A stretch of DNA of 64,000 bases from Octopus vulgaris. Taxonomy: Eukaryota. The notes beneath the pieces were generated by a model. That model made no database searches. It saw nothing but the letters and a program-made list of their open reading frames with translations, and was not told the DNA's origin. Positions 20,509 to 62,017 of the stretch are shown in pieces. Position 1 is the stretch's first letter, and each line of letters begins with the position of its first letter. The stretch lies in the NCBI GenBank assembly GCA_951406725.2, contig OX597833.1:66464001-66528000 (forward strand), in the 5' to 3' direction. Position numbers and translations under genes: made by a program.

Positions 20509-20703
20509 CCGGAGTAAACACATGAATGTGAAACAAGGTAGGAAAAAGAGTACTCAAATACCAGGGGTAGAGTAATATGCTTTATTTCAAAGCAGCAGAA
20601 ATTCAACAAAACCTGTTACTCTGAGTTTCACCCGACGAACGGGAACGTGAAACTCAGAGTCACAGGTCTTGTTGAATTTCTGCTGCTTTTAAATAAAGTA
20701 TAT
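20509..20703. mobile_element. Asymmetric fold-back insertion in (TA)n with a hammerhead core at the hairpin apex
   Basis: Arms 20575-20631 and 20647-20703 (about 57 bp, about 4 mismatches); unpaired tail 20509-20574. CCGACGA-ACG(ggaa)CGT-GAAAC-TCAGA-GTC-ACAG at 20632-20665. Confidence 0.8.
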
Positions 20704-22789
20704 ATATATATATATATATATATATATATATATATGTCTTTGTGTGTCTATCTTTCTCTGTGCATCTATATATGGATACATCCATTTTCTTTCTTCATAT
20801 CAATCCATCCCCCGTTTTATATATAACTACCTGCCTGTCTGTCAGTCTATCCGGCTGTTTGTCTTCCTACGCAGAGAATAATAGAACTTTATCAAAACTT
20901 TCTGTCGAACAACTAAAATAAACTGAAAGATACTTACGCGTACGCACCAACAAATGCACACGTGTACTAACGTACACAGACAGCCGCACAAACACACGCA
21001 CACATATACACAGAAACACACACACACACACATTTATATATATATATATATACACACCTGTATAAACTATAGACATGCGTAAATAAAGATATAAAAGAGA
21101 AGGTGTACGTCGGTATACATTTGTGTAAACAGGAAACAACCACGAAGTAGTAATACACGCACAAACATAAACAGGATTGTAGAACAAACCACATATAACA
21201 CAAATACGTATGGGTGTATATATGTGTATATATACATGTGTGTGTGTGTGAGTGTATATATGTAAGTATCTATGCAAAAACATTCATAGAACACTAGTGT
21301 TTTTCACTGAGTGGGGAAGACAAGTGTATTAAAACAGAGAAGACGAGCAGAGCTCGTAAGAACACTTATGTATACTAACTTTGAAATGTAGGCAGCTATA
21401 TATAAATCTATATATATATGTGTATGTATATATATATATATATATATATATATATATATATATATATATATATATATACATGTATATATATATACAAACA
21501 AACATATATATATATAAACACACATGAACATATATATATATATATATATCCACAGGTACATATATATATATATATATATATATATATATATATATATATA
21601 TATATATATATATATATATATATGTATGTATGTATATGTATACATCTATATTTATATATATGCATGCATAAACATACTGGTATACAAATACAATCATATG
21701 TTCATATATACACTCACACACATGTACACACACTCATACATATATACTTATATAAACTTATGTGTTTTGTTTGTGATTCTATGTAAGTGTATATACATAC
21801 ATACATATACATGTAGATATATATATATATATGTAAATATATATATATATATATATATATCGATATATATAGATATATAATGTTGGAATAATCTTATATA
21901 GACATACGGGGAACAAGAAATACTGACGTGAATGTATATATAATTATAAACTTATTGATAAAGCTATATGTATATATATATATATATATATATATGGCGT
22001 ATGCATATCTGTATAGATATATATTTATACATATTTGAAATTATTATACTTAGGACTATATATACACACTCACACACAAACATACACGAGTCTATATAAA
22101 TTTGTATCTCCTACAATATATATTTATATCTATATAACCATCTCGCTGTGGGCACCATATATATTGACATATACATTTATGTATAATACAGAATAATATA
22201 TATACAATATACGTATGTACATATATATATATATATGTATATTTGCATACATACATATTTATATATATTTATACACATACCAAAAATACAAAATATTCCA
22301 ATACACTCAAAGAAAATCTTTAAAATACGAAAATATTCACGCTTGAGTGAACATTTTCATAAAATAAGCTCTGTTTTTTCCCCATCTTCATCTTAATCAT
22401 AATTCTTTTTTTTTGTACATACGTATTTATGTACCTACATACATATATATATATATATATATATATATATATATATATATATATATATATATATATATAT
22501 ATATATATATGTATATACATACATGTGTCTGTTGCGTTGTTTGCGCTAAAGTTCCTACATTTATTTTTATCAGTTCCACGTTATAAAAACAACATGGCCG
22601 ATTCTTTTTTTTACGGTAACTTTTACAGATTAAGTTCTATATTAATTTAAAAATCAAATATCTCCCCCCCCCCTCAGAAAAGAAAGATAATAATAAGAAA
22701 CCATTAAACAAAACGCGAATAGTAACAACAACAACAAGAACAACAGCAGCAATAGTAATAATAACATACGGAAAATGCGAAATACACAA

Positions 22790-23790
22790 ATGAAAAACCA
22801 CCATCATCATCATCATGGGCATCATCGTCATCATCATAGAGATGATCATTATAACCATGATGATGATGATGATGATAATGATGATCAACATCAGCGTTGT
22901 CGTTGTCATTATTGTAAACCGCGTCGTCGTCGTCGTAGACGTCTTCCTCTCCTTCTCCCTCTCTTCCTCTTCATTGTTGTTGTTGTCGTTGTAGTTGTTG
23001 TTGTTGCTGTTCTTCTTCTTCTCCTCCTTCTTCTTCTTCTTCTTCTTCTTCTCCCCCACCCTCTTCTTCTTTTTCTGTTTCTTCTTCTTCTCCTCCTCCC
23101 CCTCCCTCTTCTTCTTTTTCTGTTTCTTCTTCTTCTCCTCCTCCCCTCCCTCGTCTTCTTTTTCTGTTTCTTCTTCTTCTTCTTCTTCTTCTTCTTCTCC
23201 TCCTCCTTCTTCTTCTTTTTCTGTTTCTTCTTCTTCTTCTTCTTCTTCTTCTTTTTCTTCCTCTTCTTCTTCTTGTTCTTCATCTTCTTGTTCTTCCTCT
23301 TCTTCTTGTTCTTCCTCTTCCTGTTCTTCCTCTCCTTCTTGTTTTTGCCCTCCTTCTCCCCTCCTCCTTCTCCCCTTCCCCTCCTCCTCCTCGTCCTTCA
23401 TCTCTACTTGTTTTTGTTATTGCTCTTCTTCTTCGTTTCTCCTCTTCCGCCTCCTTGTTGTTGTTGTCATCGTTGTCTTCCTCCTCCTTTTCCTCGTTGT
23501 TGTTGTTGTTCTTCTTCTTGCTGTTGCTCTTGTTATTGTGCACGTTCTTTTTTCTTCCTCCTCCTCCTTCTCCAGCCCCTCTTTCTCTTCCTCTTATCCC
23601 ACCTGTTCTCACTTCCTCCTCATCCACTTTCTCTTTCCTCTTCATCTTCTTCCTCCTCTTTCTCTTTCACCTCTTCATCTTCTTCTTTTCCCTCCCCTCT
23701 TCCTACTCCGCCCTCCTCCACTTCATCAGCATCAATCTCATCATCCTCATCATCATAACCACCATCGCCGTTGTCGTTCCTTTTCTCGTC
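22790..23790. repeat. About 1-kb mixed trinucleotide low-complexity tract (CAT/GAT/CTT/CCT/GTT)
   Basis: Direct reading; source of the poly-S/E/L ORFs. Confidence 0.92.
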
Positions 23791-24266
23791 CTCATCATTT
23801 ATTACATACATTACACACACACAGATATGTATATATATATGCACAGACACACACACACACACACACACACATATATATATATATATATATGTATATATAT
23901 GTATGTATATATATATACATATATATACATACATACATCATACATATATATATATATATATATATATATATGCGTATACATATATGCGTATATGTGTGTG
24001 CGCGCGCATGTGTATTTAAGATATGTGTTTTTCTTCATAACCATACAATGTTAGCCTCGCTGTCAAAATGAAACAAATATTTACATTGAAAATAATGTTT
24101 TTATTCTCTTTGATTCCATAAAGTGGGTTCAATCCGACCGGTTTCTTAGCTTCTTAAACTATTATATTCATTGAGAGAGGTGCTAATTACAATATTAAGT
24201 GTGTGTGTGTGTGTGTGCGTATATGTGTGTGTGAATATATCATACGCATATCATATTGTGTAGATA

Positions 24267-59810: not shown

Positions 59811-60550
59811 GTCGAAAATGGATGCCGTCGCTGTTAATGACCAGCCGCTGTAAACGTCCTGAATTTCAAACCTCCTTGTTCCCATATTAGAATTACTGAA
59901 TTTAAAGAAGGACAGGGTGTATATATATATATATATATATATATATATATATATATATATATATATATATATATATACATACATACATACGTACATACAT
60001 ACATACATACATATATATATATATTTTATTTTGTTTCAGCTCACAAGCTGTGGCTATATATATATATATATATATATATATATATATATATATATATATA
60101 TATATATATATATATATATAGTGAGAATTTACAAAAAGACAAAAGACGAAGATAGGTGTTTAAACAATAAACAGATGTTTTAGAACACAGAAATAAACAG
60201 GGAGAGAAAATAGAAAAAGGTTTAGTGGCTAGCGATCTATGATGGCGAAATTATATATATCTGTAAATGTAATATGTGACAAATACTCGTTAGCCATGAT
60301 AAAACTCTCTTCAGTTATCCGGCCATCGGAAAAAATGCTATGAAAATGACCGTTAAACAAAGGGAAATTACTGTGTGATTGACCGTTATTAAGACAAAAG
60401 AGCTATTTGAATGACCGCTAAGTGAGGGGAGGGAGTAAAACTAAGGGGTTAAAAATGTTCATAGTATTCGCGTAAGCGCGCTTACCTACACCTACACAAG
60501 CGCACTTACCATACCTACACATGCGCAGCCGCACACCCATGTACATGCGA

Positions 60551-60685
60551 TTCGGCAAAAGACAACCGATAGAATAAGTACTAGGTTTACAAAGAATATG
60601 TCCTGGGGTCGATTTGCTCGACTAAAGGCGGTGCTCCAGCATGGCCACAGTCAAATGACTGAAACAAATAAAAGAATAAAAGAAT
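60551..60685 (+). mobile_element. SINE family A 3' end
   Basis: TTCGGCAAAAG..CAGCATGGCCACAGTCAAATGACTGAAAC. Confidence 0.85.
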
Positions 60686-61351
60686 GAAGGAATACTACAC
60701 CGTTGCACTTAGTTCTTTTCTACAAAGCGTGCGAAGCAGGCGAGTGGTAGGGTGGTCGCGACTGGAAAGGCTTTGACTATATGTTTGCTAGATCTGAATA
60801 GATTGGAGGTATAGAAATAATAACTGGATTTAGGAAGAAATACATCATTTTTTTTTTTACATATTTTTATGTAAATTGCACGTGTTTTTACGTCCATTTT
60901 TACGTGTTTTAAAGTTTTTTAAAACGACTTTTGATGCCATTTTAAATCTCTTTCGAATAAATTTTACGATGTATAGCAACATTTTATGAACGAAGAATAG
61001 CAATTAAACCGCCTTATCTGTTAAAATGTCTGTCTACAGCGTTTTAGGCCCATAAATGTATCGATTTTTATTTTATATCTAAAGCATTATCTTTGAACGA
61101 AATGCAACAAAATTTGAACATTTAGAAAAAACCTTGAAGTCTAAGACTTTATAAACAAGGCTAAACGCATTGTGATGTTGTTTTAACTCCAGCAAAAACA
61201 TTAGCCACATGAGCAGATCTGCTAGAAATAGCAGCCACATTTATTGAAATTGCACCGACTATCATAAGAAATGGGGTAGGTGTATTGACCCTTTTAATAT
61301 CAACTCGTCTAAGACCACCCCTGCTTATATGATACAAGTTTCTCATTTTAA

Positions 61352-62017
61352 CCCTTTAGCAATTTAAACTAGCCCTATCCAGTCAAAATATTCTTCCCCT
61401 TTAATGTTAAACCCGACCAGATCTGACCTCTTACACATGCCCTACAATGTCATTCTAAAAATAAATAATCACATCCTTAAAATCTCAAAGCTATGAGATA
61501 ATGCATGATTAGAAAATTACTATTTCTAAATCTCACAACGAGATATATGCAGCAACAGTTCTTTATAGTAAAGATTATTTGCCAACATAATATGGCAGTC
61601 CTGGTTTAGGACGAATGTTACTGTAATTTAGCCCCAGGAAGCATCATCTCCAGCTGGCTATATGACATAATCTGTGTCCTTATATTTTCGAACAAGGGAA
61701 TCTAGCACCTCCACTCAGCTCAAAACAATATCTGCGTATTGTGATGAAGAGAAATAACTCGGAAATCGCGATACACAGATATTGTTTTGAGCTGAGTGGG
61801 GGTGCTAGATTCCCTTGTTCGAAAATATAAGGACAAAGATCGTGTCGTATAGCCAGCTGGAGACGATGTCTCCTGCGGCTAAATTACAGCAATATTCGTC
61901 CTAAATCAGGACTGCCATGTTATGTTGGCAAAAATCTTTACTCCGATGCATGATTAATTTAAAACAATGTGAATAAATAACCATTACGTTTGACAGAATA
62001 ATTTCAATACTAAAGGG
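61352..62017. mobile_element. piggyBac-like MITE, interrupted by a fold-back insertion
   Basis: TTAA-CCCTTTAG ... CTAAAGGG-TTA(C) termini; about 220 bp once the nested insert is removed. Confidence 0.7.
61512..61945. mobile_element. Asymmetric fold-back insertion with 11-bp TSD and hammerhead core at the apex
   Basis: TSD ATGCATGATTA (61501-11 and 61946-56); arms 61567-61745 and 61765-61942 (about 178 bp); unpaired 55-bp tail. GTGATGA-A-GAG(aaataa)CTC-G-GAAA-TCGCGA-TA-CACA at 61741-61777. Confidence 0.85.

Follow-up and report, generated by a model that had tools for sequence, protein, structure and literature searches.

Fold-back insertions in an octopus genome window as likely stubs of Penelope-like elements, and a family-specific pile-up of breakpoints at the hammerhead ribozyme

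For Penelope-like elements (PLEs), the insertion unit is described as an element with an inverted 5'-truncated copy beside it, one tailed end and (TA)n as target (PMC8557442). Rotifer PLEs show head-to-head repeats, junction palindromes and target duplications of 8-10 bp (PMC3846280), and minimal hammerhead ribozymes (HHRs) are found in pairs on opposite strands 100-700 bp apart (PMC4209133). For the PLE of Anolis, both target strands are nicked and extended, two internal starts of reverse transcriptase (RT) define the tail, the protein is a predicted dimer and the HHR is protein-assisted; in vitro, a 5'-truncated template gives a shorter product and HHR mutants give the same band (PMC11167929). 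How PLEs form inverted terminal repeats and what their HHRs do are both left open by PMC8557442 and PMC11167929. Here we analysed a stretch of 64,000 nucleotides of Octopus vulgaris (contig OX597833.1; "the window" below means this whole stretch, counted from its first letter), in which six inverted-repeat insertions, named E1-E6 in coordinate order, were compared with HHR loci from public metagenome contigs. Our results suggest that the hairpins E1, E2 and E6 are probably one-off PLE insertion stubs, with arms ending near the HHR because the template RNA begins there, and they reveal a breakpoint bias at the HHR which is real but family-specific.

All six inverted repeats are present, with arms of 57-192 aligned columns at 79-94% identity, laid out as follows.

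17194 to 18280, no strand: E1, with a tail at about 17194-17323, an inverted arm ending in the long stem II loop of an HHR, a middle of about 790 nt and a plus-strand copy with a complete long-loop HHR; arms 17324-17411/18203-18299, 79% identity, 791 nt apart
20509 to 20703, no strand: E2, a fold-back stub in (TA)n, tail 20509-20574 plus two arms; arms 20575-20631/20647-20703, 93% identity, loop 15 nt
25885 to 26271, no strand: E3, a fold-back in (TA)n with the tail on the right, no HHR and an 18-bp palindrome; arms 25882-26014/26049-26182, 94% identity, loop 34 nt
35372 to 36045, no strand: E4, an old inverted pair; arms 35372-35522/35901-36045, 79% identity, 378 nt apart
43171 to 43625, no strand: E5, an AT-rich fold-back in (TA)n with the tail on the left and no HHR; arms 43247-43423/43447-43635, 83% identity, very AT-rich, loop 23 nt
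61512 to 61945, no strand: E6, a fold-back stub, tail 61512-61566 plus two arms; arms 61567-61745/61765-61942, 91% identity, loop 19 nt
61501 to 61511, plus strand: target-site duplication of E6, left copy, 11 bp
61946 to 61956, plus strand: target-site duplication of E6, right copy, 11 bp

A preliminary description of this DNA had claimed six mutually dissimilar inverted-repeat insertions, and this is confirmed, since in pairwise comparison no element resembles another; the best similarity of any of them elsewhere in the window covers 22 nt (E=0.003). Its claim of an unpaired tail on one side in most of them agrees with five of the six (about 130 nt in E1, 66 in E2, 89 in E3, 76 in E5 and 55 in E6), E4 having no clear tail. 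The placement of most insertions in microsatellites stands for E1, E2, E3 and E5, which are bordered by simple repeats on both sides ((TA)n on both flanks of E2, E3 and E5), and on one side for E4, but it does not extend to E6, whose host site is another, high-copy repeat; tandem-repeat masking covers 32% of the window (20440 of 64000). The limits of E6 are fixed by empty-site joints, found among the joints listed (15 of 643, mostly of the flanking repeat) in 11 contigs of run X1 and 18 contigs of run X3, while read depth along E6, which varies about tenfold with local divergence, was dropped as a measure. Run X22, raw reads under the same species label as the best run, gave only 2 reads on the high-copy repeat at 61400-62060, and is probably from another kind of genome or filtered.

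The ribozymes of three of the elements, all on the plus strand, are the following.

18131 to 18233, plus strand: HHR of E1, with a 5-bp stem I, CTGATGA at 18136, 74 nt to GAAA and a UU cleavage site
20632 to 20666, plus strand: HHR remnant of E2, with a core (one mismatch to CUGANGA), 3-bp stem II, GAAA, 3-bp stem III and a UC site
61741 to 61778, plus strand: HHR remnant of E6, with the core from GAT on, stem II at 61749-61760, GAAA, a palindromic 6-nt stem III and a UA site

In E2 and E6, just as had been proposed for the two tightest hairpins, the loop carries the HHR core and stem II and the 5' strand of stem I is absent. The broader proposal, a recurrent junction on the HHR core, is thus true of two of the six and half-true of E1, where the inverted arm stops inside the HHR loop and the other copy continues past; E3 and E5 have no HHR at all and E4 is doubtful. 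Counted from the first base of the HHR core, as are all junction positions below, the arms of E2 start at about 0 (sense) and +15 (inverted) with the cleavage site at +29, and those of E6 start at +2 and +24 with the site at +32; the cleavage site is intact in both arms of both elements. As read from the sequence, the E6 junction has a 3-nt microhomology at 61743-61745. In E1, E2 and E6 alike the arms point outward from the HHR, that is, an inverted 5'-truncated copy is joined head to head, the loop is part of the tail-less arm, and the tail-bearing arm is truncated further at the 5' end than the other. The HHR of E1, on which the preliminary description is silent, has a stem II of just 2 bp and is a decayed copy; in E2 and E6 folding of the remnants would be prevented, since GAAA and stem III are tied up in the long arm. 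If transcribed through, the stems of E2 and E6 would be 57 and 179 bp, and they might then supply dsRNA to ADAR or Dicer as the preliminary description supposes.

A strict motif scan of the window yielded one HHR-like motif, in the E2 loop. In a relaxed scan there were 8 matches at a score of at least 10, where 20 shuffles gave 2.9 on average (max 7), and 3 at a score of at least 14 against 0.45 (max 2); E2 scored 14.5 and E6 10.5, so that the E6 motif by itself lies inside the window-wide background. The assignment of an HHR to E6 is a putative one, backed by the position of the motif in the 19-nt loop and by compensatory changes of stem II in related contigs, where GAG/CTC of E6 is GGG/CCC in most relatives; for the middle pair in run X1, A to G at 61750 makes up about 60% of the depth and T to C at 61759 about 95%. 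Some E6-related contigs regain the missing first base of the core, and all three contigs of run X13 that cross the E6 junction carry different extra letters with the core restored, which fits further fold-back copies that have their junction at the HHR, as reconstructed from read tables. An Rfam search of the window gave no HHR among the matches listed (150 of 692), which were mostly microsatellites matching miRNA models.

The breakpoints were evaluated on a sample of 107 loci with a minimal HHR motif, obtained from 1 of 64 parts of the metagenome collection, with reference copies taken from the same loci. More than half of them (56 of 107) belong to one family, here family 0, whose upstream open reading frame (ORF; locus L034) has homologs carrying the RT domain PF00078 and the GIY-YIG domain PF01541, two of them named from stony corals; its identity rests on these homologs, the ORF alone giving no Pfam match to GIY-YIG. 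Among the judgeable copies of family 0, 40 of 53 end 1-14 nt upstream of the HHR core, a density of 0.080 ends per nt in this zone vs 0.0025 farther upstream, with a ratio of 33 and a binomial p of 3e-23 if the copies are independent; three copies that meet contig ends (L093, L095, L103) are omitted, and L034 and L022 are censored. The same pile-up is seen in 19 of 31 copies that have no inversion beside them. Moreover, of 22 adjacent inverted pieces, whose ends are free of the constraint of the search motif, 17 end at -10 to +20, three at +75 to +109 and two are internal pieces, while none ends between +21 and +74. This count omits L020, L022 and L083, where the inverted piece is not adjacent, and L048, with a possible short inverted piece below threshold; L001, L016, L043 and L060, which end at contig ends with arms of 97-100% and are possible assembly artefacts, are retained. 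The junctions of E2 and E6 fall in the same zone as the family-0 ends, and a metagenome search with the arm pattern of E6 found 0 loci.

Family 0 carries a tail of about 50-55 nt. Duplications of 9-13 nt lie near the ends in 6 of 10 tested fold-backs, and therefore the fold-backs are single insertions. By eye, 15 distinct junctions were counted among 17 fold-backs, several with 1-4 nt of microhomology. The tail-bearing arm is the shorter one in 6 of 10 (L033, L038, L047, L059, L064, L078), with one case against (L100) and three ties, and this may reflect the order of two priming events. As side observations, L016, L033 and L060 have a junction identical to the base (+1/-7) with differing downstream sequence, and in the family-0 insertions L020, L030 and L066 some internal pieces, from the endonuclease or 3' untranslated region, are inverted, which we take to resemble the twin-priming inversions of L1 type.

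The other 51 loci behave differently. They include 20 fold-backs, in 15 of which both arms pass the core by 44-113 nt; in four the shorter arm stops at -10 to +1 and in one at +30, and in none of the 20 do both arms end at the HHR. The remaining 31 have no inverted repeat, many with less than 120 nt of upstream sequence, and their 5' ends stand outside the count. The suggestion in the preliminary description of a breakpoint bias at the HHR is therefore retained for at least one family, family 0, on copies and inverted arms alike, and given up as a general rule for the other families. Where it is present, the bias is found on the 5' side of the fold, the far one, leaves the cleavage site untouched and is shared by non-inverted stubs.

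These properties, with inversion not needed, effectively rule out cleavage as its cause and disfavour stalling at the fold's base. That self-cleavage of the HHR creates an RNA end which sets the breakpoint might be thought of because the HHR adjoins the junction in E2 and E6, and yet both arms of these elements run through the cleavage site into sequence upstream, the family-0 ends are some 10-40 nt upstream of that site, and catalytic mutants leave the product unchanged in vitro (PMC11167929), so that we give this explanation hardly any credence. More serious is the alternative that the ribozyme fold itself ends reverse transcription, either because RNA and cDNA refold separately after the hairpin has been copied or because a protein bound to the HHR dislodges the RT, the freed end being then joined by microhomology. 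The family-0 ends do cluster exactly at the 5' edge of the fold, no local hairpin there is stronger than the HHR, that of Anolis is assisted by protein (PMC11167929), and shorter arms of other families end at -10 to +1 in the four fold-backs mentioned; nevertheless 0 of 22 family-0 arms end where a stalled RT is expected to stop, the 3' base of the fold, most fold-backs of other HHR families read through on both arms, four further HHR stubs of the window seem by eye to reach 50-100 nt upstream without fold-back, and product length in vitro tracks the template's 5' end (PMC11167929). We regard it as possible, though on balance unlikely. It is the idea of the preliminary description, whose claim that the fold fixes where the RT stops we do not uphold, with ends at the far side, non-inverted stubs alike in 19 of 31, read-through in 15 of 20, and HHR mutants that have no effect (PMC11167929).

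The simplest reading, and the one that fits best, would be run-off at the RNA 5' end, by which the hairpins of E1, E2 and E6 may be explained in four steps. The RT-endonuclease of the element would nick both target strands, and each nick would prime a cDNA at one of two internal starts just downstream of the HHR, and with two different starts only one arm would receive a tail. Both cDNAs would copy the entire ribozyme and run off the RNA 5' end, at a distance upstream that is specific to the family, and 0-4 nt of microhomology would serve to join the cDNA ends head to head; trimming can reach into the core there, as in E2 and E6. In D. virilis, transcription starts 46 nt before a 75-nt intron (PMC2377424) whose end maps to helix I of the HHR (PMC4209133), and this distance from start to HHR is comparable to the read-through range of -44 to -113, so that it fits run-off. 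Sharp and specific to the family, such a pile-up of 5' ends records in the genome where cDNA synthesis ends, the elements themselves being ordinary PLE debris.

A hairpin could also arise from one cDNA alone, folded back on itself as its own primer, or through self-priming on an antisense template, which has been proposed for rotifer PLEs. Junction palindromes, together with the self-priming proposal in PMC3846280, speak for it, as do an 18-bp palindrome at 26006-26023, read from the sequence at the inner end of the left arm, which adjoins the junction of E3, and a hairpin that is possible in the E6 loop. In E1, E2 and E6, however, the loop lies in the tail-less arm, so that copying of that cDNA cannot yield the tail-bearing arm, and we hold self-priming to be improbable.

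As for the classification, E1, E2 and E6 are likely PLE insertions because of the ribozyme together with the layout. A type I minimal HHR in the terminal repeat occurs in these three and not in E3 and E5; the head-to-head inverted copy of endonuclease-positive (EN+) PLEs is likewise seen in the three, a one-sided tail in five of six, and the target, a duplication of about 8-11 bp or (TA)n, is represented by the 11 bp of E6 and by (TA)n for E2, E3 and E5. RT plus GIY-YIG were found for family 0 only, outside the window. E3, E4 and E5 are not counted among them; E3 and E5 probably arose in the same way, in families that lack the HHR or have had it cut away. The layout of non-LTR retrozymes, a head-to-tail tandem with a whole HHR per unit, is not that of these single head-to-head pairs.

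The counterpart against which the preliminary description had set its reading, ordinary miniature inverted-repeat transposable elements (MITEs) with terminal inverted repeats, does not fit five of the six insertions: tails lie outside one arm in E1, E2, E3, E5 and E6, so that the inverted repeats are not at both termini, and an HHR is present in E1, E2 and E6. Its own notion of non-autonomous hairpin elements fares no better, with 15 different junctions among 17 fold-backs. That some or all of the insertions are MITEs or a self-amplifying non-autonomous hairpin family would agree with the spaced arms of E4, which has no clear tail, and with E3 and E5 having no HHR; with arms that are not terminal, the 11-bp duplication at E6, and junctions distinct in family 0 and in all three X13 contigs, we consider it very unlikely. 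Because the junctions differ between copies, the stubs have the look of by-products and not of a hairpin element that amplifies itself.

Several points weigh against the account of E1, E2 and E6 as PLE stubs ended by run-off. In the window, a Pfam search of 95 ORFs gave no RT or GIY-YIG partner, the sole match being a zf-RVT fragment of a long interspersed nuclear element (LINE), and tblastn plus hidden Markov model searches with 22 PLE proteins found no remnant of RT or GIY-YIG. The relaxed scan finds no HHR in E3 and E5 and in E4 one candidate with a score of 8.7, at background level. The tails of 55-130 nt are longer than the 30-40 nt in print. As regards the metagenome sample, it comes from other animals, probably of few host genomes, and was selected for an intact HHR motif on one arm; the HHR is the most stable local hairpin of family 0 (-12 kcal/mol per 40 nt), and the four shorter arms at -10 to +1 in other families mean that a fold-linked stop may contribute. 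A frame in the E1 tail, taken by eye for a PLE N-terminus, was rejected, its search giving one repetitive protein (E=4.5e-4), and this too counts on the negative side.

A more speculative possibility, to which we assign a low probability, is that the HHR of some PLE families serves as a structural terminator and joint of reverse transcription and not as a nuclease: it would end both twin-primed cDNAs and supply the microhomology that fuses them, each insertion destroying the ribozyme and seeding long hairpins for ADAR or Dicer. If true, it would give PLE hammerheads a role independent of cleavage.

Besides the six elements, the window has other repeats. HHR-like stubs of PLE type without fold-back are located at 49-110 (+), about 410-470 (-), 640-680 (+) and about 3520-3555 (-), with motifs at 53+, 461-, 647+ and 3551-; the stubs of 461(-) and 647(+) are unrelated sequences lying head to head across a short (TA)n, and a second copy of the 647(+) family at 60119-60230 (-) has by eye apparently lost its HHR by internal deletion. 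The cores of 461(-) and E2 begin with CCGA, not CTGA, and the HHRs of E6 (61741-61773) and 461(-), from unrelated families, share a variant in which an A stands unpaired ahead of stem II and GAAA is preceded by an additional purine. A repeat of about 183 nt forms arrays in both orientations (14236-15925, 27265-27657, 28500-28866, 30310-31417 and 62843-63488), which include a 206-nt inverted pair at 96% (28499-28704/30353-30558); no convincing HHR was found in this repeat. The LINE fragment with the zf-RVT match, at 40716-41294 (+), overlaps a 284-nt direct duplication at 97% (41135-41417 and 41509-41792).

Compared with the described systems, the window elements are like the unit of EN+ PLEs (Craig et al. 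2021, PMC8557442), which has a truncated and an inverted truncated copy, a tail at one end, an HHR in the pseudo long terminal repeat (pLTR) and (TA)n targets; unlike in that unit, both copies are here reduced to 60-240 nt with longer tails, and the position of the junction relative to the HHR is not stated in its accessible text. The Penelope elements of Adineta vaga (Arkhipova et al. 2013, PMC3846280) share the head-to-head inverted pLTRs, target duplications, tail and junction palindromes, and the accessible account invokes self-priming on an antisense template and does not mention the HHR. The ribozymes resemble those of PMC4209133 in the short or palindromic stem III, the unpaired base 5' of stem II, the opposite-strand pairs and their place in mostly truncated PLEs, whereas the Results of that work report no clustering of breakpoints and the E6 family adds an extra purine before GAAA. 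As in Poseidon of Anolis carolinensis, PAc (Frangieh et al. 2024, PMC11167929), both strands would be nicked and extended from two RT starts on an uncleaved RNA template; that study does not address the joining of inverted copies or genomic 5' end positions. Non-LTR retrozymes (bioRxiv 10.64898/2026.07.22.740005) are likewise short non-coding sequences derived from PLEs with a type I HHR, although in the accessible text they are head-to-tail tandems with a whole HHR each, and the window elements are single head-to-head pairs with a broken one. The accessible part of PMC6431247 has nothing on junctions, and a literature search covering main texts turned up no account of a clustering of ends at the HHR, which supplements and figures (e.g. 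coverage plots such as PMC11167929 Fig. S2) could show. To sum up, the architecture of these insertions is already known from PLEs, and the pile-up of ends at the HHR is a real and testable refinement of it.

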